64,000 nucleotides of DNA from an uncultured delta proteobacterium (GTDB taxonomy: Bacteria > Myxococcota_A > UBA9160 > UBA6930), in contig CAVQUJ010000008.1 in the NCBI GenBank assembly GCA_963716895.1, positions 828 through 64,827 on the forward strand, given 5' to 3'. The translations under genes were made by a program, and so were the position numbers. The stretch's first letter is position 1; every line of letters starts with the position of its first letter. Below the pieces are notes generated by a model. That model was not told the DNA's origin, did no database searches, and saw nothing but the letters and a program-made list of their open reading frames with translations. Shown one piece after another: positions 1 to 13,696 of this stretch.

Positions 1-30
1 AGCTCGCGCTCCGTCTCACTCCTTCGGACC

Positions 31-76
31 CTTCCCAAGCCGAGGGTCGCGGGTTCGAATCCCGTCTCGCGCTCCA
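31..76 (+). repeat. 3' half of tRNA-Gly(CCC), att-like fragment (not a complete tRNA)
   Basis: cTTCCCAAgccgagggtcgcgggTTCGAATcccgtctcgcgctCCA gives the anticodon loop, T-arm and 3' acceptor strand with CCA. The upstream bases cannot form a D-arm or the 5' anticodon stem. Confidence 0.85.
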
Positions 77-492
77 AGATTCCCGTGCTGTGTCGCGCGT
101 CTTCGTCGCTGACCGCTTTCGGCCTTCGGGCTCTCGAAATCGCGAGGGTGCGCGGGGGGTGCGTCTTCGGCCGTCGAGGTGCGTGCCGGAGCGCCGAAGT
201 CCGGCGTTGCCCACGGCGGCGATCGAACATGACGATCCGGCGATCGAGCGGCCTTCGCCGTGCGCTGCGAAACGCAATCGCAGCCCTAGCGCCCGACGCA
301 CGCATGGCCGAACGCCGTGACCTAGGCGGTTTGGTGGGTCCGGGTCGGGCGTCCTGGCACATCTGCGCCATGCGCTGCCGTCGCGCTTCGACGTAGACAG
401 CGGGCGGCTCCCCAACTACGAGACGGCACGGCCGTTCCCACCCAGGAGACCCGAATCATGGTTGGAGCACGACGATCGAATGGCGATATCCC

Positions 493-1536
493 GTGGTTCG
501 CCAGCAGCTGCCGAACGACGGACTCTGGCTCGCGGGCCTGCTCGGCTTGGCCCTCCTGCTCGCGACGAGCGCGAGTGCCGCCTCTCGTGCCGGATTCTGC
601 ACGTCCACGGCACGGGCCCAACTCGTGGGCTGCCGCGGCGACGCGGTCGACGAGTTTTCCACTGCGACCGCAATCTGCATCAACGAGAGCGATCCGGTGG
701 ATCGCGCTCAGTGCAACCAGGACGCCGCGACCGCCCGGGACGAGAAGTCTCAGCTCTGCGAGGATCAGCTCGCGTCGCGGATCGCGGTGTGCAGAGCGCT
801 CGGCGAGGGTCGCTACGACCCGAACTTCGACGAGGCGAACTTCGTGCGCGACTTCCGGCACCCGGGCGTCTCGAACCCCTACCAGCCGCTCACGATCGGT
901 GACACCTGGGACTACAGCACCGGGACACAGACGGACCACATCGAGGTCACGAGCGAGACGAAGCGAATCGACGACGTAACCTGCCTGGTGGTGCGGGACC
1001 GGGTGAAGGAGGACGGCCAGCTGATCGAAGACACCGACGACTGGTTCGCGCTAGCCCGCAGCAACGGAGACGTCTGGTACTGCGGCGAGGAGGTCAAGGA
1101 CTATGAGACCTTCGATGGCGACCGGCCGCCGAAAGCCGGAGCTCGTGGCCATCGACGGCTCCTTCAAGGTCGATCGCGACGGCGCCAAGGCGGGCGTCAT
1201 CGTCGCCGCGGCTCCGGTCCTGGGCCGCCTCACTCGCCAGGAGTACGCGATCGGGGAGGCCGAGGATCTCGCCGAGGTCGTCGAGACCCACTACGTCTAC
1301 GGCAAGCGGCCCGAGCTCGACGCGCTCGTGCCGAAGGACCTCGCCGACCACCTGTGCGGGCCCGGCTGCGTCGTCACCCGGGAGTTCTCGCCGCTCGAGC
1401 CCGACGTGGTGGAGCACAAGGTACTACGCGCGCGGGATCGGGGTGTTCCTCGAAGACGGACGTGGATACCGGGGAGGTGAACCGGTTGGTCGACTGCAAC
1501 TTCGATTCGCGCTGCGACGCGCTGCCGCAGCCGTAG
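493..1536 (+). CDS. Secreted hypothetical protein (Cys-rich N-terminal part plus conserved uncharacterised domain), frameshifted near 1135 and 1440
   Basis: Signal-peptide-like N-terminus. Motif string NPYQPL...VVRDRV...EDTDDWFA...GDVWYCGE continues in the 1103..1480 frame as DGSF...DGAKAG...RQEY..GEAEDLAEV. Confidence 0.7.
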   Translation: MVRQQLPNDGLWLAGLLGLALLLATSASAASRAGFCTSTARAQLVGCRGDAVDEFSTATAICINESDPVDRAQCNQDAATARDEKSQLCEDQLASRIAVCRALGEGRYDPNFDEANFVRDFRHPGVSNPYQPLTIGDTWDYSTGTQTDHIEVTSETKRIDDVTCLVVRDRVKEDGQLIEDTDDWFALARSNGDVWYCGEEVKDYETFDGDRPPKAGARGHRRLLQGRSRRRQGGRHRRRGSGPGPPHSPGVRDRGGRGSRRGRRDPLRLRQAARARRARAEGPRRPPVRARLRRHPGVLAARARRGGAQGTTRAGSGCSSKTDVDTGEVNRLVDCNFDSRCDALPQP

Positions 1537-1611
1537 CCCCGGCGTCGCAGGTTCGATCCTTGGCCAGGGCGAAAGGAACCTGCCGAAGCTGTCGGCGGAG
1601 GCCGGAAATGA

Positions 1612-1637
1612 GGGGCCGCCTGGGGCCGTGGGGCCGT
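1612..1637 (+). promoter_or_regulatory. Triple direct repeat GGGGCCG(cct/t), putative integrase arm-type sites
   Basis: ggggccgcct-ggggccgt-ggggccgt starts 115 bp upstream of the anticodon of a tRNA half. The same 10/8/8 architecture recurs at 4172-4197. Confidence 0.6.
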
Positions 1638-1724
1638 GGCTGGACGCCGCTCCGTGCCGCTCCTTGCAGGCCCTTGCAACGCGCCGCGCGCAAGCCCGCG
1701 TCACTCCTCGGTGTCGGGGTCGAC

Positions 1725-1767
1725 CTTACAAGCAGGGGGTCGCAGGTTCGAGCCCTGCCGCGCCCAC
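1725..1767 (+). repeat. 3' half of tRNA-Val(TAC), att-like fragment
   Basis: CTTACAAgcagggggtcgcaggTTCGAGCcctgccgcgcccac gives the anticodon loop, T-arm and acceptor 3' strand. There is no 5' half. Confidence 0.85.
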
Positions 1768-1876
1768 TCCGAAGTGCGCGAGGGTGCTCGCTTCTACGGA
1801 GCGCTTTGCGGCGGGAGGCATCCGCGGGGAAGAGGGCCCGCCTGCGCGTCGCCAGGGCCCATCGCTGCAGGAATTG

Positions 1877-1912
1877 CGACGGGGTAGCCGAGTCGTCTCG
1901 GCTGCCCCGTCG
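1877..1912. terminator. Strong hairpin, probable terminator
   Basis: cgacggggtagccgag-tcgt-ctcggctgccccgtcg forms a 16-bp stem with one mismatch/wobble, immediately after the stop of a minus-strand mini-ORF. Confidence 0.55.
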
Positions 1913-1915
1913 GCT

Positions 1916-2032
1916 TCACAGAGCGCGACGACCGCCTTGCACCGTGTCGGGAAACGTGCGGCCCTTCACCGAGCCGCTCACCTTGCACTTCTCGGGCCTC
2001 GCGGTGCCGATGTACGAATCGGTGCAGGTCAC
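1916..2032 (-). pseudogene. 38-codon coding-like fragment (VTCTDSYIGTARPEKCKVSGSVKGRTFPDTVQGGRRAL)
   Basis: GC3-rich codon usage, no clear RBS, followed by a hairpin. The family is not recognised. Confidence 0.35.
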
Positions 2033-2090
2033 CCCAACCCCAGACGGCAATCGACTGAAACGATGCGGCGTATGTCAGCGACGGGTCGTC

Positions 2091-2907
2091 CTAGAATCGC
2101 AACCCGAGGCCCACGATCAGCGACGGTCCGAATTCCGCCTTCACGTGGTTGGAGAGCGCCTGATCGTCCTCGTAGTACATCTGCTCGAACGCGATGCCGC
2201 CGAAACCTTCGAGGCCCACGCGGTCGAGGTCGATCAAGCGGTACTTGGCGACGAGCTGCTCGGTGTAGATCTGCCCCAAGGAAGAGATCGGCAGCGTCGC
2301 CAGCACGGACCCGTCGATGCCGAAGCGCCCGCGGCCCGGCCGCCACTCGCCCTCGAGCCCGAGCTGCGCGTTGACCTTCGTGTAGCTGCGGTCCGTCGTC
2401 TGGCCTGCACCCTGGCAGCCGATAGTGGAAGTCCCACACCGTGGCGCCGAGCGAGGGCCACAGCGTCCACTCCCCCTCGCTCCCCAGCGTGAAGCGGTGG
2501 CGATATCCGAATCGATACCAGTTCAGGTCCACGTCGGACGAAACGTGCGTTCCGGCTGGGAAGGTCTGGCCACGGCTGATCAGCGCCTGATCGAGCGTCG
2601 CGCTGCCGGACATCTGGATGAGCTGGAACCCCGCGTAGATCTCTTCGTTCCGGTAGGCCGCGATTCCCGCCACGTCGTAGATCGAGGTGTCGCTGATGCC
2701 GATCTCGTCCAGCGTGGGACGTTGGCTGCTGCTGGTCCCCGGCTGCCCGCCCGACGGCGTCTGCACGTAGCCATCGATGCCGCCGTAGAGGTACGAGCCC
2801 TGCAACGAGAAGCGCCAATTCGACTCGACCGGTTGCGCTCGGGCCGCCGACGCAGCCAGCAGAGCGCTCAGCAGCAGGATCCGAGGCCAAGGCGTCCACA
2901 CTCGCAC
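2091..2907 (-). CDS. Outer-membrane beta-barrel protein (frameshift near 2410)
   Basis: Signal peptide, alternating beta-strand pattern, C-terminal GLGLRF with terminal Phe. ORFs 2029..2907 and 2091..2306 are joined. Confidence 0.7.
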
Positions 2908-3238
2908 GAGAACCCCTAGCGCGGCAGGAACCCACGAAACACGCCAAGGCGACGATGCTAGGCGGCGCGCGATCGGCCCCGGCTGAAGGTTCGTTCATGA
3001 AGGCCGCCATGAAGGCCGCCTTCATCTCGGTGGCTGGTGTGGCGGCCGTCGGCGGCTCGGGAATCCGGTGAAGTGAGTTGGGGCGCGGAGAGGCTTCGCC
3101 GGAAAGAGCATCGGCCAGCATCGCGGCGCGTATGGGCCAGACGCCGTTTGGCGCGGCTGCTTTCAGGCGCCTGCAACGCTGGGTGACGAGCACCAGCGTG
3201 GAGGAAGCCGCGAATCGACAGCTAGGCTGCCGGATTGG

Positions 3239-4010
3239 ATGGGGAGCCTAGCCAGATACGCCTTGGCCGTTCTGTGCGCGCTTGCGGTTGTTGCCGGGGC
3301 CGCTCGCGCCGGCGCGCCGTTCGTGACCGACGACCCCGAGCCCGTCGAGCCCGGGCACTGGGAGGTGTTCCTCGCCGCGCAGCCCGCCCACGACCCGGGC
3401 GGCTGGTCCGGCACGGCCCCGTTCGTGGACGCGAACTGACGGCGCGGTCGAGAACCTGCAGCTCCACCTGATCGTGCCGCTCGCCTTCGACGCCGCCGAG
3501 CACGGGCGGAACAGCTACGGCTACGGCGACACCGAGGTCGGAGCCAAGTTCCGCTTCGTCCAGGAGAGCGAGCTCCGCCCGCAGGTGGGCGTGTATCCGC
3601 TCGTCGTCCTGCCCACCGGCAACGAGGCGCGCGGGCTGGGCGGCGGACGCGTGCAGGCCTTCCTGCCCGTATGGGCGCGCCTGGCAGAAGAGCTGGGGCG
3701 AGCCGGACCGCGCCTGGACCACGTACGGCGGCAGCGGCTACTGGATCCATCCCGGCAGCGGCAACCGCGATTGGTGGTACGTCGGGGCGCTCTGCAGAAG
3801 CGGCTCAGCGACTGGCTGACGCTCGGCGCGGAGGTCTACCACAAGACCGCCCAGGAGACAGACGCCAACGGCTCCACTTGGCTGAACGCCGGCGCGATCG
3901 TCGACCTGGACCAGACGGCCCACCTGCTGGCGTCGGCCGGGCACAACGTGGAGGGCGCGAGCGGCTTTCAGGCGTACCTCGGCCTGCGCTTCAACTTCGC
4001 GATGCCGTAG
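3239..4010 (+). CDS. Putative outer-membrane 'transporter' family beta-barrel (frameshifted near 3435 and 3680-3790)
   Basis: Signal peptide then APFVTDDPEPVEPGHWE, GYGDTEVGAKFRF, LPTG..RGLG.G, and a C-terminal beta strand YLGLRFNF. Confidence 0.7.
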
Positions 4011-4064
4011 GCCGGTCGATTTCCCGCCAGCCTGTTTGACGAACGGATGAAGGAGGTCGACGCC

Positions 4065-4154
4065 ATGCACGCACTCGTCTCGCGCGAGGAATGGCTCGAG
4101 GCCCGCAAAGTAGAGCGAGGCAGCGAACGAGACCCTGCGAATGGCCGCTACTGA
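4065..4154 (+). pseudogene. Truncated DUF899-like (thioredoxin-like family) 5' stub
   Basis: AGGAGG RBS at 4051-4056, then MHALVSREEWLEARK, the typical DUF899 N-terminus. Similarity is lost after 15 codons and the ORF stops at 4154. Confidence 0.6.
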
Positions 4155-4171
4155 TAGGTGGCTCGAGGCCA

Positions 4172-4197
4172 GGTGCCGTCTGGTGCCGTGGTGCCGT
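4172..4197 (+). promoter_or_regulatory. Triple direct repeat GGTGCCGT(ct), putative integrase arm-type sites
   Basis: ggtgccgtct-ggtgccgt-ggtgccgt starts 111 bp upstream of the anticodon of the second tRNA-Gly half. Confidence 0.6.
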
Positions 4198-4279
4198 CTG
4201 CGACGCCGCGCGTGCCGCCGTGCGCCGCGTCTCCGCGCACCCGACGCAAGCTCGCGTGCTTGCTCACTGCCTTCGGGCC

Positions 4280-4324
4280 CTTCCCAAGCCGAGGGTCGCG
4301 GGTTGGAATCCCGTCTCGCGCTCC
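4280..4324 (+). repeat. Second 3' half of tRNA-Gly(CCC), att-like fragment
   Basis: Near-identical to 31-75 (T-loop TTCGAAT changed to TTGGAAT, terminal A lost). The upstream ~30 bp also resembles 1-30. Confidence 0.85.
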
Positions 4325-4485
4325 GCGGATTCGCGTGGATCCGCTTCGACGTCGGATAGCGGCTCGCTGTCGCGCCGTTCGTGACGTCGCTGAGTGGTCA
4401 CGGTGCGATTTCGGGCCGGCCGTCCTGCTCGCGCTCGAGCGAGCGCGCGCTTGATGGATAGGAAGGACCCCCACTGGGCTGGGAA

Positions 4486-4667
4486 GTGGGGGGACTTGTG
4501 AGGGGACTCCCCTCAGATTCGGCCACGCGAGACCACAGGGAGCCAAAGTGAGGGGACCCGTAGACACGCGACTTCGCTCAAGTTACCGTCGGCGCTTTGG
4601 AAAGTGGGGCGCGTCGGGCACGTTCACACCGCGGAGGTCGCAGGTTCGAGCCCTGCACGCCCCACCA
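4486..4667 (+). mobile_element. attR-like right end of a genomic island in tRNA-Val(CAC): arm repeats plus displaced 3' tRNA half (4621-4667)
   Basis: gtgRggggac(t/c) at 4486, 4498 and 4548. cgTTCACACcgcggaggtcgcaggTTCGAGCcctgcacgccccaCCA has no D-arm and lies 22 bp before an intact tRNA-Arg. Confidence 0.75.
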
Positions 4668-4689
4668 GCCCGCCTCCCGTCGGTGCCTT

Positions 4690-4766
4690 GGCCCAGTAGC
4701 TCAGTTGGATAGAGCGCCTGCCTCCGAAGCAGGAGGTCGCAGGTTCGACTCCTGCCTGGGTCACCA
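4690..4766 (+). tRNA. tRNA-Arg(CCG)
   Basis: Full cloverleaf: acceptor GGCCCAG/CTGGGTC, D-arm GCTC..GAGC, anticodon loop CTCCGAA, T-loop TTCGACT, encoded CCA. Confidence 0.97.
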
Positions 4767-4848
4767 GCCCGCCCGCCGCGTCAACCGCGTCAAGGCCGGG
4801 CTTCGGTGTGCCGATCCACCCCGGGGAACGGGTGCGCGAGGACGAGTC

Positions 4849-6568
4849 ATGGAGCGACGCGGCAGCGACCGCATCCGGCGCCGGATCTCGTGCGCGTTCG
4901 AGCACGAGGGCCAGCTCCGCGATGCGCTGGTCGTGGACCTGTCCGCGGGCGGCCTGTTCCTCCAGACCGACGCCGCGCTCCCGCTCGGCAGCGAGCTCAC
5001 GCTCCGCCTCCGGCCCGAGGGCTTCGGCGAGCTCGAGCTCCGCGGCCGCGTGGCGCGCCGGCGTTTCACGCCGGCAGTGATCTCCTCGCTGCTTCGCCGC
5101 GGCGTGGGCATCCAGCTGCTCGCCGCCCCGGAGAGCTATCGCGAGCTGCTCGGCGGCACCGAGGCGGCACCCGAGGCCGCATGGTCGGCCCTCTCGGATC
5201 TCGAGCCGCCCTTCGAGCCGCGCTGTGCCGGAGCCGGCGTGTCGCTGGACATCGCGGTCGCGGCCGAGGCGCCGGCGGCGCCCGAGACCGTCGACGAGCC
5301 GACGCTCGAGCTGCGCCACGCGCCCCCCGCGCGCCGAAGAGGCGGATGAGGAAGAGGCGGAGGCGCCCGAGAAGATGCTCGCGGAGTCCGCGCCGGTGCC
5401 TGCGGCGCCGCGCTGGGCGCCCGAGAGTCGCTGCCGGGCGGATGCGCTGCTCATCCACGACGGCGAGCTCGACGACGTGCAGGCGCTGCTCGAGGCGATG
5501 GGCGCCAATGCGGTGCGCCAGCCCACGATCGAGCCGAGCGGCTTCACCGACTGGGAGAGTCCGCCGCGCCTGATCGTGGCCAGCGGACGCAGCGCGCTGC
5601 GTCTCTCTATCGGCACGAACGTCGAAGGGCAGGGCATCGTCACCATCGCCGTGGTGGACAGCGAATCGCAGACCCTGTGCGGCATGCTCCGCCGCCAGGG
5701 CTTCCGCTACGTGGTGCGACGGCCCGTGCACCACGAGGCGCTGCGCCTGCTGCTCGGGCGGGCGCTGTTTCGTGGGCGCGAGCGCCGCGACGCGGCGCGC
5801 ATCTCGCTCGGCTGCGAGGTCGGGCTGCGCTTCGGCCTGCGCCGCAAGCCCGCCACGCTGCTCGAGCTGTCGCGAACGGGCTGCCGCGTGCTCATCCCGG
5901 AATGGGTGGAGCGGGGCGCGCGCCTCTCCGTGCGCATCCCGACGGCCGTCACCGGGAACCGCCCGCTCTCGCTCGTGGGACGCGTGGTCCGCAGCGAGCG
6001 CCAGCGCCGCGCGAGCAGCGAGCCGAGCGTGGCCGTCGCACTCCGCTTCGACCGGCTCGACGCCGAGACGCGGGCGCGCCTCGATGCCCTGATCGCGGCC
6101 CACTCGCTCGGCCCCACGCCCCTCGACCGCAGGGACGCGGCGCGTCCCGCGGCGGCCACTGCGGCTCCGTTCAGCGGCGAGAGTGATCGCCGGCGCAGCC
6201 CGCGCGTGCCCCACCGCCAGGAAGTGATCGCGCTCGAGCCCGAGCTCTCGCGCGTGCGCCACACGCTGCTCGGCATCGACCTCTCGCTCGGCGGCATCCG
6301 CGTCGAGCCGCATCCCGAGCTCGCGCTCGGCGACCGCGTGCGCATCGCGATCTACGACGCGGCTTCGAACGCCTCGCTGGTCGTGGATGCCGAGGCCGTC
6401 CGCGACCAGGGCGCCCAGGGCGTCGTGCTCCGCTTCAAGAACGTGCCCGACGACGCGCGACTCCAGATCGAACGCATTCTCGCGGCCCCGCCGCAGATCG
6501 AGTCCGCGGGCGCCGCGGCCGGCAGCGGCGTGGTGGTCGCCGAGATGCTCGAGCAGCAGACGGTCTGA
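4849..6568 (+). CDS. Multi-PilZ-domain protein (frameshift near 5330)
   Basis: Three RxxxR...(D/E)xSxxG motifs: RRGSDR/DLSAGG, RRDAAR/ELSRTG, RRRSPR/DLSLGG. Confidence 0.8.
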
Positions 6569-6591
6569 ACGCGCCACGGTATCGTGCGCTC

Positions 6592-7440
6592 GTGATCGGC
6601 GTGGGCGTGAATGCGTGGGTGTGGACCTCGCCCTTCACGGCGAGTTCGGTGGAGCTGATCGCGCGCGCGCAGGCGATGGGCTTCGACGCGTTCACCATCC
6701 CCGTCGAGGATCCGGCGGCCATCGACGGCGACGCCGTCGGCCGCGCGCTGCGCGACAGCGCTCTGCGCGTCCACGTGACCGGCGCCTACGGGCCGACGCG
6801 CGACCTCACCCACGACGAGCCGCGCTTCCGCGAGGAGAGCCTGCGCTACATCGCCGACACCCTGGCGCTGTGCGAGCAGTGGGGCGCGCGCCTGCTGGTC
6901 GGGCCCTGCTACTCCGCGGTGGGCAAGCGCCGCCACGTGCCGCCCGAGCAGCGCCAGGTCGAGTGGGAGCGCGCCGTGGTGGGGCTCCGCCGCGCCGGCG
7001 CGATGGCGGCGGACCACGGCGTGGTGCTCGCCGTCGAGGCGCTGAATCGCTTCGAGACCGACCTGGTCAACACCGCGGAGCAGCTGGGCCGCCTGCTGCG
7101 CGACGTCGGCCACCCGGCGGTGAAGGCGCACCTCGACACCTTCCACATGCACATCGAGGAGAAGGACGTCGCCGCGGCGGTGCGCCGCGTTGCGCCACAT
7201 CTCGTCTATGTGGACGCCAGCGAGAGCGATCGCGGCACGCCCGGTAGTGGGCAGGTGGATTGGAGCGGCCTCGCGCGCGTGCTCCGCGAGATCGACTACG
7301 CGGGCGACTGCGTGATCGAGTCGTTCACGCCGGAGTGCCGGACGATCGCCGCCGCGGCGGCGATCTGGCGCCCGCTCGCGCCGTCGCAGGACGCGCTCGC
7401 GCGCGACGGCCTCGCCTTCCTGCGTGGCCTGCTCGCCTAG
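6592..7440 (+). CDS. Sugar phosphate isomerase/epimerase (D-psicose/D-tagatose 3-epimerase-like)
   Basis: EALNRFET, LDTFHMHIEE, ESDRGTPGSG, IESF, WR metal/catalytic motifs. Confidence 0.9.
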   Translation: MIGVGVNAWVWTSPFTASSVELIARAQAMGFDAFTIPVEDPAAIDGDAVGRALRDSALRVHVTGAYGPTRDLTHDEPRFREESLRYIADTLALCEQWGARLLVGPCYSAVGKRRHVPPEQRQVEWERAVVGLRRAGAMAADHGVVLAVEALNRFETDLVNTAEQLGRLLRDVGHPAVKAHLDTFHMHIEEKDVAAAVRRVAPHLVYVDASESDRGTPGSGQVDWSGLARVLREIDYAGDCVIESFTPECRTIAAAAAIWRPLAPSQDALARDGLAFLRGLLA

Positions 7441-8207
7441 CGAGAGGGCGGCTTGATGCGGACGCCCGTGATCTGGTTCACGTAGACCTTCCACGGGTAG
7501 TGGTCGCCCTCGCCGGCCGAGCCTTCGACGCGGAAGTGCTGGGTGAGCGCCCGCCGCCAGTGGTCGGAGAAATTCGGCGGCGTCATGTGCGGCATCTTGC
7601 CGTGGTGGAACGTCACGTCGCCGAGGGCGAGCGGGCAGGCGACGCGAGCCGCTTCGTCCACCTCGCAGACGAGCAGGTCGCTCTGCACGTTGTCGGCGGC
7701 GCGGTGCGGCAGCACGCCGAGCTTGTGGGCGCCCGGCACGAAGTGCATGCAGCCGTCCTGCTCGTCCACCGCATGCAGCGGCATCCAGCAGGTGATGCCG
7801 CGCTCGTCGAGGTTGCGTCCCCAGTAGGCCTCGTCCTGGTGCCACGGCGTCTGCGCGCTCTCGTTCGGCGGCTTCGCGAGGAACTGGTCGTACCAGAACT
7901 CGACGGGCTTCCCGAGCAGGCTCGAGGCGAACTCCCGCGCCCAGATGCGGAAGCGCTCCTGCGAGAGATCGACGCCGATCAGGCTCGGGCTCGATTGCAC
8001 GATGCGGAAGCGGCGCTTCTCGCGCGGCGTCGCCGCGTCCCAGGCCCAGTCGAAGGCCACGTGCTCCTTGTTCTCGAGGATGCGCTCCGTGGCGCGCTCG
8101 AGCGTGCCGAGGTGGGTGGGGTCGATCGCGCCCCGCACGACGAGGAAGCCGTCGCGGCGGAAGCGGTCGATCTGCGCGGGGCTCGCGGCGGGGTAGGGCG
8201 TGGGCAT
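7437..8207 (-). CDS. Phytanoyl-CoA dioxygenase (PhyH) family 2OG-Fe(II) oxygenase
   Basis: FRRDGF, WHQD, GCMHFVPGAH, GDVTFHHG..PH...N.S...RRA. Confidence 0.9.
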   Translation of the reverse strand: MPTPYPAASPAQIDRFRRDGFLVVRGAIDPTHLGTLERATERILENKEHVAFDWAWDAATPREKRRFRIVQSSPSLIGVDLSQERFRIWAREFASSLLGKPVEFWYDQFLAKPPNESAQTPWHQDEAYWGRNLDERGITCWMPLHAVDEQDGCMHFVPGAHKLGVLPHRAADNVQSDLLVCEVDEAARVACPLALGDVTFHHGKMPHMTPPNFSDHWRRALTQHFRVEGSAGEGDHYPWKVYVNQITGVRIKPPSR

Positions 8208-8217
8208 CGAAAGCGAT

Positions 8218-8243
8218 TTGACCAGAAACGTCCGAATAGTCAA
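8218..8243. promoter_or_regulatory. Inverted repeat, probable TetR operator / divergent promoter
   Basis: TTGACCA-N12-TAGTCAA lies in the 37-bp gap between the divergent PhyH and TetR genes. Confidence 0.5.
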
Positions 8244-8244
8244 G

Positions 8245-8919
8245 ATGGCGGCCATGCCCCGCCAGGCCCCGCTCCGCACGCGGCGTCCGAGCTCGTCGCC
8301 GGCCCGCGTGGCGGGGCGGGAGCGGCGCCGCCGGCGGATTCTCGAGGCGGCCGCGGAGCGCTTCGCCACGCACGGCTTCGCGAAGAGCTCGATGGACGAG
8401 ATCGCGAGCGCGGCGGGTGTGTCGAAGGGCCTCATCTACGACCACTACCCCTCGAAGGAGGATCTCCTCGACGCGGTGTGGCAGGGACTCGTCGATCGCT
8501 GGGCCGAGGCCACGCTGCGCACGAAGCTCGCGGACGGAGACTTCGCGGCGTCGATCGGCGCGGCGCTGCGCGCCTCGATCCGCTTCGTGGAGGCGGACCC
8601 GCTGCTGCACCGCATCCTCGCGCAGGACCCCGGCAGTCTCGTGCCGCACGGGCGCGAAGGCATCGCCGCCTTCGCGCGGCTGTATCGCGCGATGCTCGAG
8701 CCGGTACTCGCGCGCGGCAAGCGCAAGGGAGAGCTGCGCCGGGATCTCGACGTGGCGCACACCGCCGAGACGATCTGGTGGATCCATCATGCGCTGATCC
8801 GCGAGCTGTTCGTGGGCGTCGCGCGCGCGCCACGCGCGGACGCGTCCGCGCTGGTGGAGGGCGCGCTCGCGCTGGTCGTGCAGGGGCTCCTCGCGCCGGC
8901 ACGGACGCGCCGCGCGTGA
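8245..8919 (+). CDS. TetR/AcrR family transcriptional regulator
   Basis: ILEAAAERFATHGF...MDEIASAAGVSKGLIYDHYPSKEDL HTH. Confidence 0.92.
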   Translation: MAAMPRQAPLRTRRPSSSPARVAGRERRRRRILEAAAERFATHGFAKSSMDEIASAAGVSKGLIYDHYPSKEDLLDAVWQGLVDRWAEATLRTKLADGDFAASIGAALRASIRFVEADPLLHRILAQDPGSLVPHGREGIAAFARLYRAMLEPVLARGKRKGELRRDLDVAHTAETIWWIHHALIRELFVGVARAPRADASALVEGALALVVQGLLAPARTRRA

Positions 8920-10520
8920 AGCGGCGCGCGGCGCTGGCGCACGGGCTCCTCGCCGCCGTGCTCGCGACGAGCGCCGCCGCGCAGAGCGTGGGGCCGACGG
9001 AGATCATCGGCCCGTGGCTCGGCCCCGCCGCCGCCCAGCAGCCGGACGCGCTCGCCTTCTACGGCACCGACCTCGGCTGGACCTTCGAGCACGCGGGCGC
9101 GCTCCAGATGCTGTTCGGCGACACCTGGTTCCACGCGCGGACGCTCTGCGGGGGCGCGCCGAGCAACGACGACGTGCAGGTGACGCTGCCCCTCGAGCCG
9201 CCCGCCGTGTTACCGCCGCCGTTCCGCTTCGCGCGCAGCGACGGGCGGGCGGAGCCGGATCGCATCTTCGTGTACCGCGCCGGCGCCTCGCTGGCGATGG
9301 GCTTCGGCCAGGTGCCCATCGCCGGCTTCAGCGACGGGGCGCGGGCGGTCGGAATCTTCGGGCGCTGGGACCCGGTGCGTTGCACGGCGGCGGCCGCGGG
9401 CGCTCCCCCGAGCTGCGGCGGCGCCGGCGACGGCCTCGTCTGCTCACCGCACCTCGGCCAGTGCACGCCGTCGCTGCTCGGCATCACCACGGTCTGCGAC
9501 CTCGAGTCGGGTGCCGGCTGCCAGCTCACCCAACGCTGCGAGCCCGTGCTGCCCGGGTATTGCGTCGATCCGCAGAGCCCGCAGGGAGGCGGCACGCGTG
9601 CGAGCGAACGCCACACCGTCGCGCACGAGATCGAGTTCGGCGTCCAGCGCGCGCTGCGCAGCGCCTCCTACGATTCGATCGCGAGCTGGCCGACGCATCG
9701 CTTCCTGAATGCGACCGCGCGCACCGTCGCGCGCTTCAGCGGCCGCACGAGCGGCAGCGACTACCGGCTCGGCCACGGCGCGCTGCTGATCTGGGGACGG
9801 CCCGGCTACTCGGCCGAGGGCGCGCGCCAGGCGCCGCTCTCGCTGCTGGTGCACGACCTCCCGATCCGCACGGACGCTGCGGGGCAGTGGGAGTTCCAGC
9901 CGCGCTACTTCGCCGGCCTCGACCCGGAGACGCGCGAGCCGCGCTGGTCGCGCCGCGCCGCCGATGCGGCCTCGCTCGCGCTCGACGGCGAGGTCGGGGG
10001 CAGCCCGCTCGAGAAGTACCCGATCGTGAATCAGCTCAGCGTCGCGTGGGTGGGCGCGCCGATCGAGCGCTGGGTGATGCTCTACGCCGGCGACGTCGTC
10101 GACCTCGCGCTCGAGGATCCGGCGCACGCGCGGCCGGGGCCGGAGCCGGGCGCGGTCCAGATCCGCTTCGCCGCGCAGCCCTGGGGCCCGTGGACGCCGC
10201 CGGTGCCCGTGCTCGGGCCGGGCGCGCCGGACCGCGCGGGCTCGCCGTACGGGCCCGGCGGCGTGCTGTTCCACGAGGACTGTGAGGATGCGCCGGGGGC
10301 GCCGTGCGCGAAGAGCGACCCGAAGCGCCCGCTCTCGGGCTTCCTGCCGGGCTGCGTGTCGGTGCCCTTCTTTCACGACCGCGGCCGCTTCTACGGCGCG
10401 AACCTGATCGCGGAGTACACGCGGCCCGACGACGCCGGCGGCGTAGACGTCCATTGGAACATCTCGACCTGGAACCCCTACGGCGTGGCGCTGGTGCGCA
10501 CGAAGCTCCGGCCGAACTAG
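8916..10520 (+). CDS. Secreted DUF4185-like beta-propeller protein with Cys-rich insert
   Basis: Signal peptide, GTDLG, LFGDT, PWGPWT, YG.N, ISTWNPY.V motifs. The GTG start overlaps the TetR stop. Confidence 0.65.
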   Translation: MKRRAALAHGLLAAVLATSAAAQSVGPTEIIGPWLGPAAAQQPDALAFYGTDLGWTFEHAGALQMLFGDTWFHARTLCGGAPSNDDVQVTLPLEPPAVLPPPFRFARSDGRAEPDRIFVYRAGASLAMGFGQVPIAGFSDGARAVGIFGRWDPVRCTAAAAGAPPSCGGAGDGLVCSPHLGQCTPSLLGITTVCDLESGAGCQLTQRCEPVLPGYCVDPQSPQGGGTRASERHTVAHEIEFGVQRALRSASYDSIASWPTHRFLNATARTVARFSGRTSGSDYRLGHGALLIWGRPGYSAEGARQAPLSLLVHDLPIRTDAAGQWEFQPRYFAGLDPETREPRWSRRAADAASLALDGEVGGSPLEKYPIVNQLSVAWVGAPIERWVMLYAGDVVDLALEDPAHARPGPEPGAVQIRFAAQPWGPWTPPVPVLGPGAPDRAGSPYGPGGVLFHEDCEDAPGAPCAKSDPKRPLSGFLPGCVSVPFFHDRGRFYGANLIAEYTRPDDAGGVDVHWNISTWNPYGVALVRTKLRPN

Positions 10521-12197
10521 GGCGCGCGCCAGACGCTCTCGCCGCCGATGATCGTCTCGAGCACGGGAATGGCTGCGAGGTCCGCCGGGTTCTCGGCGAG
10601 CGGCGAGCGGCCGAGGATCACGAGGTCGGCGAGCTTGCCGGGCTCGAGCGAGCCCTTCGAGTCCTCCTCGAAGCCCTGGAAGGCCGCGTCGATCGTCACC
10701 GCGCGCAGCGCCGAGGTGACGTCGATGCGCTCCTCGGGGCCGAGCTCCTGCCCGCTCGTGGTGCGCCGGTTCACCGCGGCCCACACCAGCCGCAGCGGGT
10801 CGAGCGGCACGACCGGCGTGTCGCAGTGGAGCGTGAAGCGCACGCCCTTCTCCTGCGCGGTGTGCGTCGGGCTGATCCGCGCGGCCCGCTCCGGGCCGAG
10901 GAAGCGCTCGCGGTGACGGTCGCCCCAGTAGTAGGTGTGGAGCACGAAGAAGCTCGGGATCACGCGCAGCTTCTTCATGCGATCGAGCTGGTCCGGGCGC
11001 GTCATCTGCGCGTGCACGATGATCGGGCGCGCGTCGAGCTCCGGGTCGCCGAGCTGCGCGGCCTCGATCGCATCGAGCGCGTCGTCGATCGCCGCGTCGC
11101 CGTTCGCGTGGATCGCCACCTGGAGCCCGGCCGCGCGGTAGGCCGCCACGCGTTCGCGCAGCTCTTCCTTCGGATAGCGCGGATAGCCGCGCGCCGTCGG
11201 GATCGTCGCCGGGCGGCACGAAGTACGGCTCGCGCAGGTATGCGGTGTAGCCCTGGATCGAGCCGTCGCTGATCAGCTTCACCGCGCCGAAGTGCACCCA
11301 GAGCGGATCCGTGCTCGGCAGCGAGGCCGTGCCGGCCAGCACCGCGTCCATCAGCTCGACGCCCGGCCAGATCACGAGCCGCAGCGGGATCCGGCCGAGC
11401 CGCGACAGCCACACGAGCTTCAGCAGCTCCTCGGTGGCGTAGCCCACCTGCGCGGTCGTGACACCGGCGGCGAGCGTGCGGCGGTTGGCCTCGTCGACGA
11501 TCGCGAGGCTCCCGCGCAGGCCGGGCTTCATCACCTGCGCCATCACGGGCTCCATGGCCGTCTCTTCGAGCACGCCGGTGGGCTCGCCGTTCGCGTCGCG
11601 GCGGATGCGGCCGCCCGGCGGGTCCGCGGTCCCGCGGTCGATGCCGAGCAGCGCCAGCCCGCGTCCGTTCACGGAGGCGAGATGGCCGGAGACGTGGACG
11701 ATGCCCACCGGGAGCTCCGTGGACACGCGGTCGAGGTCTTCGCGCGTCGGGTGGCGGCTTTCCGCGAGCAGCGTGTCGTCGTAGCTCATGCCGACCACCC
11801 ATTCGCCGGGCTCCTTGCCGGCGGCCTGCTCGCGCAGGCGATTCACGAGCTCGTCGAGGTTGTGCACCGTCCCGATCGGGGGTGCATTGAGGTCCGCCGC
11901 GCGGGCGTAGACGCCGGAGCCGGGATAGTGGCCGTGCGCGTCGATGAAGCCCGGCAGCAGCGCGTGGCCGTCGAGCTCGATCACGCGCGCGCCGGCGCCG
12001 GCCCAGCGCTCCACCTCGACCTCGCTGCCGACCGCGCCGATGCGGTCGCCCTCGACGCCGAGCGCTTCGACGACGCGATTCTGCGGGTCGAGCGTGAGGA
12101 TCGAGCCGCCGCGATAGATCGTCTTGCCCGCCGGCGGCCCGCCGCACGCGGCGACCACCCCTGCGCACGCCACGGCGATCGCGCGAGCGAAGCTCAT
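10517..12197 (-). CDS. Amidohydrolase 3 (YtcJ-like) lipoprotein (frameshift near 11190)
   Basis: PGFIDAHGH, SGH..SVN, KLISDGSIQGYTA, HANGDAA, HAQ, GSLEPGKLADLVIL. Lipobox-like VAAC. Confidence 0.88.
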
Positions 12198-12248
12198 CGG
12201 CGCGCATGGTAACCCGCGCCGGGGACGGACCTCGGGTGCGGAAGCGGA

Positions 12249-12718
12249 GGTCCGGGGCAGGGGCCGGGAGGGGTCACTGCTCCGGTGCTCGACGTGTCGG
12301 CGTACGGAGCGGGTGGAAGAAGAGCGGGGCCATGCGAGCTCTACCGGCCACGCTCGCTGCGCTCGCGACTCCGTTGTCGTGGCCGCCCCTCGTGATTCGC
12401 TCGCCGTGCGACCGCTGCCTCCCAGACCGCACCTGCGCAGCAACGCCCTCCCATCCCCCGCGCCTCGGAGACGGCACGACGGACGCGCCGTCTCAGAGGC
12501 GCGGGGGCGGGAGGGCGTTGCTGCGCAGGTGCGGTAGTAGAGGAAGCGATCGCACCGCTCCCGGTCACGAGAGTGGGTCGCGACAACCGAGTCGCGAGCG
12601 AGTCTTCGAGCGAGCGTGGCCAGTCCCAGGGCGAGGCCGGTCACCTTCTCCACCCGCTCCGCATAGCGACACGTCGAGCACCGGAGCAGCGACCCCTCCC
12701 GGCCCCGGCCTCCGGCCC
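12249..12718. repeat. Long imperfect foldback palindrome, copy 1 (two inverted ~230-bp arms)
   Basis: 12426-12452 is the exact reverse complement of 12509-12535. The termini ggggccgggaggggtc.ctgctccggtgctcgacgtgtcg / cgacacgtcgagcaccggagcag.gacccctcccggcccc also pair. Confidence 0.9.
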
Positions 12719-12719
12719 G

Positions 12720-13696
12720 TCAGCCCGCGGGCCCGAGGCGCCGCCGGATCGCCTGCTCGAACTCGCGCACGGCGGCGCCTGCGAACTGCTCGCGCAGCTC
12801 GGTGAGCTTCGGGTGGCCGGCGCGGCTCTCGGCGTCCCACTCGTCGGCGAAGCGGCCCGAGGCGATGTCGTCGGTCAGCTCGCGCATCGCGTCGCGAGGT
12901 CGAGGTGGTCGTAGGCGCCGCGGCGCGAGAGCTGGCCGTACTGGCTCGTCGGCGAGTGGAACTCGAACTGGCGCGCGTAGCCGACCTCGCGCAGCGAGGC
13001 GGTAGTTGCGCTCCACCTCGCCCGAGAGCACGAGCTCCGTCATGATCGCCTCGAGCGGGATGCCGTGCTCGAGCATCGACGCTGACGAAGGCGCTCGTTC
13101 ACGTGCGTCAGCGCGGGCGACGAGCACCTGCTCGACGGCGAGGTCGAGCACCGCCTCCTGGTGCGGCGTCAGCTCGATCGCGCCCTGGCGCAGCCCGCCG
13201 ATCGCCTTCGCGACCGCGAGCGTGCGCGGCGAGCGCCCGGCCGGTCGCGTCGCGGTGCACGCCGACGGCGGTGATGAAGCCGATGCCCTCCTCGTAGCAG
13301 CGGCGCACCTCGGGCCCGAGCATGCGCGGCGCGACCATCCCGACGTCGCCCGGCGGGTCGAAGCGGTCGAAGGCGAGCGTGTAGCCGCTCGCGACGATCG
13401 GTGAGGCCGTCGTCGCGGCGGCGCGAGCGGCGAGCGACGGGATCACGTCGTCGGGCACGAGGACGCAGACGATGTCGGCCGTCGCTCGCGGCCGCGACGT
13501 CGGCGGGCGGCGAAGCCGTCGGCGCCGCGCCTGCTCGCGCGTCGCGTCGGCGCGCACGCAGACCTGCACGTCGACGCCGGAGTCGCGCAGGTTGAGCGCC
13601 CACGAGCGGCCCTGGTTGCCGTAGCCGACCACGGCGACGCGCTGTCCGCGCAGCGCGCTCGAGGTCGGCGTCTGCTTCGCGGTAGATCGTCGTCAT
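12720..13696 (-). CDS. ilvC: Ketol-acid reductoisomerase-like protein (several frameshifts)
   Basis: MTTIYREADADL, GYGNQG..WALNLRDSG, LVPDD, ASGY, MVAPRMLG..VR..Y..G, DL..EQ, HSPTSQYG. Confidence 0.7.

Follow-up and report, generated by a model that had tools for sequence, protein, structure and literature searches.

What kind of mobile structure leaves four 3' halves of tRNA genes on one strand within 4.7 kb is the question raised by the left end of the window, the 64,000-nt stretch of contig C8 that was analyzed here. A sequence-only reading had taken the row for a tRNA-based analogue of an integron. Intact tRNA genes of the genome were called with ARAGORN and compared with the halves by BLAST within the genome. 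On the plus strand follow a tRNA-Gly(CCC) half at window 31-78 (48 nt, 100% identity to C1:9968-10015), a tRNA-Val(TAC) half at 1724-1775 (52 nt, 100% identity to C10:47664-47613, reaching 8 nt beyond the tRNA end), a second tRNA-Gly(CCC) half at 4280-4324 (44 of 45 nt, the single mismatch lying in the T-loop) and a tRNA-Val(CAC) half at 4621-4670 (50 nt, 100% identity to C2:2625-2576), with E-values from 1e-16 to 2e-23. These matches establish which tRNA each site derives from and confirm the four halves where they had been placed; in each case tRNA identity begins 1 nt 5' of the 7-nt anticodon loop, in agreement with the earlier description. The sole tRNA called by ARAGORN in the window is tRNA-Arg(CCG) at 4690-4766, and three of the four halves that lie away from their cognate tRNA in this genome fall within these 4.3 kb. 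A fifth, degraded tRNA fragment is possible at about 1539-1570 on the plus strand, where a T-arm-like segment is closest to tRNA-Arg(TCT) (27 of 32 aligned columns, a score reached by 4 of 300 random 65-mers).

The rightmost site can be accounted for in conventional terms. The Val(CAC) half appears to be an ordinary attR core, the displaced native 3' half of tRNA-Val(CAC), and the intact tRNA-Arg(CCG) on the plus strand beside it is the native neighbor and right border of an outer island. The spacing between tRNA-Val(CAC) and tRNA-Arg(CCG) is 18-31 nt in the three family or order relatives fetched (3/3), half, spacer and tRNA-Arg are covered by one match in at least 16 of 40 relatives, and the border is syntenic with a same-genus genome. 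The native gene that follows tRNA-Arg is split, as are the cargo genes described below; it is a single ORF in genome G001. Three copies of the arm-type repeat GTGRGGGGAC at window 4486-4557 (plus strand), 64-135 nt upstream of the half (3 versus 0.04 expected), are assigned to the element inserted in tRNA-Val(CAC). Two further copies lie beside the intact tRNA-Val(CAC) on C2, and the two Val(CAC) sites together hold 5 of the 10 copies in the whole genome. The C2 site is the putative attL of the outer island: it comprises the rebuilt tRNA, the matching arm motif and a tyrosine integrase gene in pieces at 1883-2143 and 2205-2369, which lie in different frames, its ORF stopping 30 nt from the 3' end of the tRNA. 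Of the intact tRNA-Val(CAC) and tyrosine integrase that the earlier reading had proposed to look for, both turned up on C2, the integrase frame-broken. The half itself is on C8, and the C2-C8 link spans a contig break.

The three inner halves are of a different type. Both Gly(CCC) halves, like the Val(UAC) half between them, are the cores of attP-type junctions, numbered 1 to 3 from left to right, each composed of P arm, core and P' flank. A P-arm profile was built from 6 sites, the three window arms among them, and searched with nhmmer. All three arms lie on the plus strand: that of the first Gly junction (C8:730-855) begins ~97 nt left of the window and ends at window 1-30, that of the Val(TAC) junction covers 1591-1720 (C8:2418-2547; E 9e-25) and that of the second Gly junction 4149-4274 (C8:4976-5101), the E-values of 1e-23 to 9e-25 being those of training members of the profile. 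Across the genome the search returned its 6 sites and a seventh, at C10:1375139-1375250 (E 1.7e-4). The conserved arm consists of direct repeats, GACGCAAGC.CGCGTCACT and the core, directly upstream of the anticodon loop, a layout that the window sites fit. Alignment A3 holds ten P arms from 5 genomes: the three window arms, C5 Arg(TCG), C10:1.375 Mb and five arms from four other genomes.

Direct repeats upstream of the halves had been noticed before; they exist, but the distance of ~110-140 bp given for them does not hold, most lying nearer the half. GGTGCCGT is present in three copies upstream of the second Gly half, at a distance of 84-109 nt (C8:4999-5024), and in four upstream of the first, at C8:740-773 just left of the window; the Val(TAC) half is preceded by two copies of GGGGCCGT, 88-103 nt away. 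Allowing at most one mismatch, GGTGCCGT has 23 matches versus 9.0 expected, a count reached in 0 of 200 shuffles. Arm plus core of the two Gly junctions form direct repeats with 84.6% identity over 169 nt, the sole internal repeat of the stretch.

Support on the P' side is strong at the first Gly junction only. Three arm-type GGTGCG sites lie downstream of its half at window 146-186 on the plus strand, the 31 nt of C8:971-1001 match the P' arm of an element at C10:1.368 Mb with 90% identity, and the minus strand of these sites encodes an 18-residue remnant of an integrase tail, the only match of the family integrase to the stretch in tblastn (E 0.23, not significant alone). Downstream of the second Gly half there is a lone P'-type site, CGGTGCGATTTCGGGCCGG at window 4401-4419 (plus strand), which makes the support weaker than at junction 1. 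At the Val(TAC) junction the evidence is collinearity of the flank at window 1768-2242 (plus strand) with the Val(TAC) element on C10, interrupted by large deletions: C8:2551-2631, 2706-2762, 2764-2862 and 2870-3069 match at 83-94% identity (counterparts at 1337-1416, 3337-3395, 3624-3719 and 4459-4658 of reverse-complemented C10:41000-49000), so that this flank corresponds to the tRNA-proximal side and interior of that element.

The inner junctions belong to a second element family, recognizable by an HTH gene beside the conserved P arm. The P arm of the first Gly junction is adjoined by an HTH gene (C8:116-727, minus strand) with 65% identity to a second copy at C10:1374505-1375191, beside which the seventh P arm lies. 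HTH homologues were found in 12 of 193 genomes of the order, the source genome included. In all four relatives fetched with context (4/4), HTH gene and P arm abut a tRNA half, with its intact cognate tRNA on the same strand 2.8-13 kb upstream. A full integrase turned up in one of these four copies; mini-elements of 2.8-4.9 kb that lack an integrase have nevertheless kept HTH gene and att sites, and since such mini-elements are common in relatives, non-autonomous mobility is possible. The fullest copy, 13 kb in genome G192, runs in the order tRNA-Arg(CCT), integrase, Prim-Pol/PriCT/AAA_25 protein, cargo, HTH gene and half. A complete family member holds a tyrosine integrase and a primase-polymerase/helicase along with cargo, its HTH gene adjoining the P arm, and different members target the anticodon loops of different tRNAs. 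In the source genome, the C10:1.368 Mb element, to which the seventh P arm belongs, bears at both ends core repeats (L019 6083-6110 and 13256-13283) and arm repeats (L019 6197-6224 and 13146-13173) and carries an integrase whose ORF crosses P' arm and core into the target; this target is the 3' end of a gene for a DDAH-like protein rather than a tRNA.

The modules between the sites measure 1.7, 2.6 and 0.34 kb, much as first described, and PF00589, tblastn and Pfam searches bear out that integrase, replication and transfer genes are now missing from them; the mobility genes have been lost. Cargo gene A (window 493-1536, plus strand) encodes a secreted protein without a Pfam match; two pieces of it match a paralogue on C7 in a single frame, and DNA alignment with this paralogue revealed three 1-nt insertions, near 1123, 1420 and 1453. 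Cargo gene B (2091-2907, minus strand) occupies at least two frames and also lacks a Pfam match; its last 50 residues share 80% identity with a remnant at C10:44342-44491, and with its signal-peptide-like start and terminal F it presumably resembles an outer-membrane beta-barrel protein. Cargo gene C (3239-4010, plus strand), spread over several frames, is similar to the MetA-pathway outer-membrane channel family (PF13557, E 9.5e-5), the one Pfam match, a weak one, among the ORFs of the stretch. Errors of assembly may account for the frameshifts in the cargo genes.

PF00589 has seven matches in the genome, none of them on C8. They include one broken gene, one without the N-terminal domain and one in two frames; two high-scoring matches we take to be of Xer type. 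The genome's one family integrase lacks the N-terminal 105 residues present in its 445-479-residue homologues, which are labelled Myxococcales or Deltaproteobacteria, and all members of its group extend into one and the same target, a protein gene rather than a tRNA. An intact element integrase was not found in the assembly, from which it could be absent because the genome is 76% complete.

Window 1-4670 is probably the right part of a composite, stripped island at the anticodon loop of tRNA-Val(CAC), formed by cointegration of attP-bearing elements and later deletion. An outer element with GTGRGGGGAC arm sites would have inserted at the loop, and copies specific for Gly(CCC), Val(UAC) and Gly(CCC) would have been concatenated head to tail inside the island. 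The Gly-Val-Gly order could have arisen by homologous (Campbell-type) recombination or by cointegration between related elements, each cointegrated element bringing along its unused attP; subsequent deletion would have removed the integrase and replication modules. One observation speaks against a Campbell-type origin: modules 1 and 2 share no duplicated homology segment of the kind that such an insertion ought to leave behind. We infer that the sites arrived by cointegration and that the stretch is immobile today.

It is possible from the site structure, though unlikely, that the modules are instead working non-autonomous elements, CIME-like or satellite-like, excised in trans by a family integrase, for instance between the two Gly(CCC) junctions, which form direct repeats. 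This amounts to the earlier reading stripped of its integron platform. All three junctions retain P arm and core plus some or all of the P' side, and the integrase genes are cleanly gone; random decay would seldom leave both flanks without integrase debris, a state that fits selection for usable sites. The mini-elements of relatives, still equipped with HTH gene and att sites, and the incompleteness of the assembly point the same way. Against this, the assembly yielded no intact element integrase, the sole family integrase belongs to the group that reads into a protein gene, and the presumed partners in excision have diverged, arm and core of the Gly junctions being only 84.6% identical and the second core carrying the T-loop mismatch. 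Quite unlikely, too, is a still-working multi-attP cointegrate whose Gly junctions could release a 4.25-kb circle with an integrase supplied in trans. If it were true, the circle would carry cargo and two attPs that differ in tRNA specificity, and could dock at tRNA-Gly(CCC) or tRNA-Val(UAC). Cargo would then pass, by way of such mosaics, from one tRNA-specific island to another that is otherwise separate from it, and the element lineage would gain a route to change or widen its target.

Chromosomal rearrangement deserves equally little credence: here related islands at different tRNA loci would have undergone homologous recombination that moved attR-type ends to this place, with no circular cointegrate. 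Another misplaced half, of tRNA-Arg(TCG), does lie 97 nt after tRNA-Ser(CGA) on C6, two genes that are not neighbors in the relatives examined, and the excerpted tycheposon preprint describes island-confined rearrangements and an inversion between element copies (bioRxiv 10.1101/2020.12.28.424599). However, P' sequence rather than host flank follows at least the first Gly site, on C1 the sequence after the intact tRNA-Gly(CCC) agrees with the window over ~10-13 nt only, and three separate exchanges within 4.3 kb would be required. An assembly artefact, in which strain variants or repeats of this metagenome-assembled genome would have been joined into a chimera, is very improbable: C8 does begin only 827 nt left of the window, C1 and C9 are 87-97% identical variant copies bridging the ends of other contigs, and frameshifts are frequent, but the 4.7 kb hold four sites whose cores differ, a genome of the same genus shows synteny at the right border, and several misjoins are unlikely to stem from so little when the only shared repeat is 169 nt at 85% and the assembly has a 3-Mb contig.

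Among known systems, the integron was the analogy first proposed. Three parts of that proposal stood: the halves are evidently recombination sites of tyrosine-integrase elements with crossover at the anticodon loop, arm-type repeats accompany them, and the modules in between are now devoid of integrase, replication and transfer genes. The single platform capturing cassettes that are mobilized in trans did not, and each half traces largely to an independently decayed island, a finding that runs against a tRNA-based integron. Integron-like capture is not supported because the Val(CAC) half is apparently an attR with its attL on C2, because the inner halves lie in attP-type junctions of a family placed, in 4/4 relatives, between an intact tRNA and the half belonging to it, and because neighboring cores differ, which makes mutual recombination impossible by the usual mechanism, and no intact element integrase was found in the assembly. 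Integrons have an IntI-type tyrosine recombinase gene beside the array, an attI site and a Pc promoter, and each of their cassettes is closed by an attC site, an imperfect inverted repeat that folds when single-stranded. The likeness is superficial, a row of small modules with recombination sites on one strand: IntI-type integrase, attI and Pc are all absent, the sites are tRNA 3' halves after direct arm repeats instead of attC, and the modules, unlike integron cassettes, hold 0-2 genes on either strand. Myxophage integrases of the Mx8 type were reportedly treated by Tojo et al. in 1996 and 2003. As excerpted, the Islander paper notes that the Mx8-type integrase gene extends across attP (PMC4383910); the integrase ORF of the C10:1.368 Mb element and its public homologues likewise runs through P' arm and core into the target, a likeness drawn by description, with the C10 copy targeting the 3' end of the DDAH-like gene, not a tRNA.

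In the same excerpts, Islander defines island ends as an intact tRNA gene and a displaced 3' fragment, recognizes an anticodon-centered crossover class, and demands, for each island, an integrase and a fragment that comes from the very tRNA gene of that island and shares its orientation (PMC4383910). The Val(CAC) pair on C2 and C8 would fit this pattern if joined across the contig break, whereas the Gly and Val(TAC) halves, whose cognate tRNAs are on C1 and C10 and which have no integrase, fall outside it. CIMEs, in the part of the source used here, have lost integration and transfer genes, keep their att sites and stand in tandem at the 3' end of a tRNA gene (PMC5704250); the window resembles them in its kept att sites and missing integration and transfer genes. 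Tandem accretion as described there joins att sites of one specificity at a single target gene (PMC5704250), unlike the present order Gly(CCC), Val(TAC), Gly(CCC), Val(CAC), whose inner three lie away from their cognate tRNA. Tycheposons, according to the excerpted preprint of Hackl et al., combine a tyrosine integrase, a primase/helicase replication module and cargo at tRNA genes, with full and partial tRNAs flanking them, partial tRNAs between neighboring elements of an island, and remnants with further partial tRNAs (bioRxiv 10.1101/2020.12.28.424599). The present island has a high-GC bacterial host, unlike tycheposons, and the window lacks both the replication and the integrase module; the tycheposon islands in these excerpts each have their own tRNA and integrase, and a mixed-core stack is not among them. 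By module content the G192 copy, with integrase, Prim-Pol/AAA_25 and cargo between full and partial tRNA, is nonetheless like a tycheposon, and the locus as a whole belongs to a well-known type of genomic island, unusual in the mixture of its sites, rather than to a new integron-like system.

ARAGORN detected 62 tRNA genes in the genome, one of them in the window, tRNA-Arg(CCG) at 4690-4766. BLAST assigned four forward-strand window stretches to 3' halves of other tRNAs: 31-78 corresponds to tRNA-Gly(CCC) of contig C1 (48 nt), 1724-1775 to tRNA-Val(TAC) of C10 (52 nt), 4280-4324 again to Gly(CCC) apart from one mismatch, and 4621-4670 to tRNA-Val(CAC) of C2 (50 nt). Read from the sequences, tRNA identity starts 1 nt ahead of the anticodon loop in all four, and the direct repeats upstream are non-random. 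BLAST and the repeat tests thus bear out the positions, identities and upstream repeats of the sequence-only reading; its repeat distances did not hold. Rfam, run on C8:1-6000 at E-values up to 1, recognised none of the halves; besides the intact tRNA-Arg, it gave just two weak matches attributed to chance.

Each of the 62 tRNAs was split into a 3' and a 5' part, and both were searched against the genome. Outside intact tRNA genes, this census yielded 14 separate 3' fragments with a length of 30 nt or more and no 5' fragments. Nine of the 14 follow their cognate tRNA on the same contig, in the same orientation (Arg-CCT, Arg-TCG, His-GTG, Arg-TCT, Val-TAC, Gly-GCC and three times Thr-CGT), one (Val-CAC) has its cognate tRNA on a different contig, and four are misplaced, three inside the window and one on C6. 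By this census, the halves cannot be taken for a repeat scattered genome-wide regardless of cargo. On C6, a tRNA-Arg(TCG) 3' half (256537-256581, locus L036) sits 97 nt past an intact tRNA-Ser(CGA), and in the relatives examined these two tRNAs are on separate contigs or far apart. Relatives also hold arrays of a single isotype: in G005 the intact Gly(CCC) gene is accompanied by four halves (contigs C125, C268, C269 and C373), and in G006 the Arg(TCG) 3' half is matched four times along contig C107, at spacings of 10-24 kb.

The Val(CAC) half lies 22 nt upstream of tRNA-Arg(CCG). In three relatives (G009, G031 and G018) the tRNA-Val(CAC) and tRNA-Arg(CCG) genes are separated by 18-31 nt, and in at least 16 of 40 relatives one continuous match covers half, spacer and tRNA-Arg. 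Because the two tRNAs are adjacent in relatives, the half would be the native 3' end displaced by an insertion, and, judged by sequence, it is an ordinary attR. On C2 the intact tRNA-Val(CAC) follows pyrG, an order also found in the same-genus genome G001, which shows homology to this C2 stretch. An integrase ORF on C2, spread over at least two reading frames, ends 30 nt from the 3' end of that tRNA, and the motif GTGRGGGGAC, present in 10 copies genome-wide, occurs twice beside the C2 tRNA and three times upstream of the C8 half. We conclude that C2 and C8 probably carry the two ends of one island across a contig gap; the window occupies C8:828-64827, and C8 extends for only 827 nt to its left. 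At C2:1-1166 the beginning of a serine recombinase gene recurs in truncated copies, 94-100% identical to the region C4:84090-85432, which contains a Resolvase-domain gene, and this repeat is a likely cause of the C2 contig break. Between its tRNA-Val(CAC) and tRNA-Arg(CCG), G001 carries an unrelated 9.4-kb stretch in which the T-arm motif is absent, and the contig bearing it has no PF00589 match.

A second family of elements accounts for the inner halves. The 130 nt upstream of six halves align: the two Gly halves, the Val(TAC) halves of the window and of C10, the Arg(TCG) half of C5 and one Thr(CGT) half. An nhmmer profile built from these six P arms, used in place of a strict motif-plus-repeat scan that found the two Gly arms only, recovered all six and a seventh at C10:1375139-1375250. 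The seventh adjoins an HTH gene 65% identical to the HTH gene at C8:116-727, just left of the window. The HTH protein has no PHROGs family and a single Pfam match, HTH_28, below cut-off (E 0.0098); an initial guess that it was a small terminase was dropped.

The seventh arm belongs to a 7.2-kb element at C10:1368001-1375283 (6002-13283 of locus L019), which has core and arm repeats at both ends, an integrase and cargo. Its target is the 3' end of a DDAH-like gene, and the integrase ORF passes through the P' arm and core into this target. The integrase lacks the N-terminal 105 residues of its 445-479-residue homologues; all its public homologues share the same C-terminal tail, antisense to the DDAH-like target, which points to an integrase group directed at a protein gene, not a tRNA. 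At the tRNA-Val(TAC) locus (C10:41000-49000, L017) lies an integrase-less 3.6-kb element whose methyltransferase and neighbouring gene share 94% identity over 1.5 kb with cargo carried by the C10:1.368 Mb element; further on at the tRNA locus, past an epoxide hydrolase gene, comes another T-arm fragment, of 26 nt.

At 70-110 nt past the first Gly half lie GGTGCG sites that share 90% identity with the C10 element's P' arm; the Val(TAC) half runs into sequence matching the flank of the intact tRNA-Val(TAC), beyond which come segments in the same order as inside the C10 Val(TAC) element; and the second Gly half has a single similar P' site. From these flanks we derive the layout, left to right, of HTH gene, P, Gly core, P', gene A (493-1536, forward), P, Val(TAC) core, P' flank, genes B (2091-2907, reverse) and C (3239-4010, forward), P, Gly core, P' remnant, outer-element arm, Val(CAC) half and tRNA-Arg. 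By layout, the Gly, Val(TAC) and Gly sites are attP-type junctions of the second family. As the sequence-only reading had stated, no integrase or replication gene remains among them (PF00589, Pfam and tblastn searches). Right after the gene A stop codon, at ~1539-1570, lies a degraded T-arm-like fragment, nearest to tRNA-Arg(TCT), possibly the remains of a fifth att site, from a class with T-arm crossover. A 29-residue ORF before the second Gly arm looked like a truncated DUF899 start, a reading that no paralogue supported and that was dropped.

HTH homologues were found in 12 of 193 genomes of the order, the present one counted. In all four relatives examined with context, a tRNA half directly adjoins the HTH gene and P arm, and its intact cognate (Arg-CCT twice, Lys-TTT and Gly-GCC) is found 2.8-13 kb upstream in the same orientation. 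In an alignment of ten P arms from five genomes (A3), direct repeats are followed by a GACGCAAGC.CGCGTCACT block that leads into the anticodon loop. The 13-kb copy in relative G192 has genes for an integrase of 411 residues and for a Prim-Pol/PriCT/AAA_25 protein of 804 residues; tblastn found no full integrase in the other three copies, one of which keeps only an integrase tail remnant after the half. These elements form a family spread across several genera of the order, marked by the HTH gene and a conserved P arm, with tRNA cores that are interchangeable. The HTH alignment found no relatives in the wider genome-contig or viral-contig collections, and the exact Gly junction pattern had 0 matches in the former. 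The metagenome-contig collection held two loci with an HTH match, neither with a tRNA by ARAGORN; at one (L024), different repeats and no tRNA core lie beside the HTH gene.

The assembly comprises 10 contigs (5.35 Mb, 72% GC) with completeness rated 76%. Contigs C1 and C9 (~23 kb each) share 87-97% identity with the contig ends of C3/C4 and C5/C10 that they overlap, and look like strain-variant bridging contigs; the sole intact tRNA-Gly(CCC) of the genome sits on C1. Gene A differs from its C7 paralogue by three 1-nt insertions, and genes B and C contain frame changes too. The native gene after tRNA-Arg(CCG), at window ~4848-6568, is split over two frames, and its G001 counterpart is a single ORF of ~630 residues. 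By long-ORF coverage, C8:1-5448 falls at the 7th percentile of 2124 windows, and many other regions score zero. Completeness of 76% in just 10 contigs, together with the split native gene, suggests an indel-prone assembly. Given that split and the many regions lacking long ORFs, the frame breaks in the cargo genes may be assembly errors, which weakens pseudogenes as a sign of decay, and we therefore left them out of the evidence for it.

Because neighbouring cores differ, the order cannot come from repeated insertion into one tRNA. If a circular Val(TAC)-specific element entered a resident Gly element flanked by Gly junctions, one Campbell-type homologous insertion would yield exactly Gly, Val, Gly; alternatively, a cointegrate of related replicating circles would give the same order, and subsequent deletions would have removed the integrase, primase and HTH genes. 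We infer such a Campbell-type or cointegrate origin plus deletion; the duplicated homology expected from a Campbell-type insertion was not seen in the stretch. The sequence-only reading had instead proposed non-autonomous cassettes mobilised in trans. Two observations speak for such mobilisation, which we consider quite improbable: the junction flanks are cleanly retained, and mini-elements without an integrase are frequent in relatives. Present-day activity of the sites looks unlikely, given the seven PF00589 matches in the genome: two high scorers, which we take to be Xer-type, one broken gene and the C2 gene, each matched in two pieces, and the C10 copy, N-terminally short and seemingly directed at a protein gene. 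Were the sites active, mixed-site mosaics would offer a route for cargo exchange among islands.

As it stands, the stretch is an ordinary island with an unusual arrangement. It indicates that an island can gather docking sites of several specificities and that a tRNA fragment within an island does not necessarily mark insertion into that tRNA; mapping methods that match each fragment to its cognate tRNA would treat such stacks wrongly. Among known systems, Islander (PMC4383910) covers displaced tRNA fragments, anticodon-centred sites and tandem arrays of the same tRNA as standard features, and modules that have lost the integrase but retain att sites are called CIMEs, which accretion joins (PMC5704250). 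No stack of complete junctions with different tRNA cores was found in the published texts searched, whose supplements may hold mixed tRNA fragments. Tycheposon islands, as described in part of their report, contain neighbouring elements and remnants with partial tRNAs, with one tRNA per island (bioRxiv 10.1101/2020.12.28.424599), and the G192 copy, with its integrase, primase-helicase and cargo, has a layout like that described for these elements.
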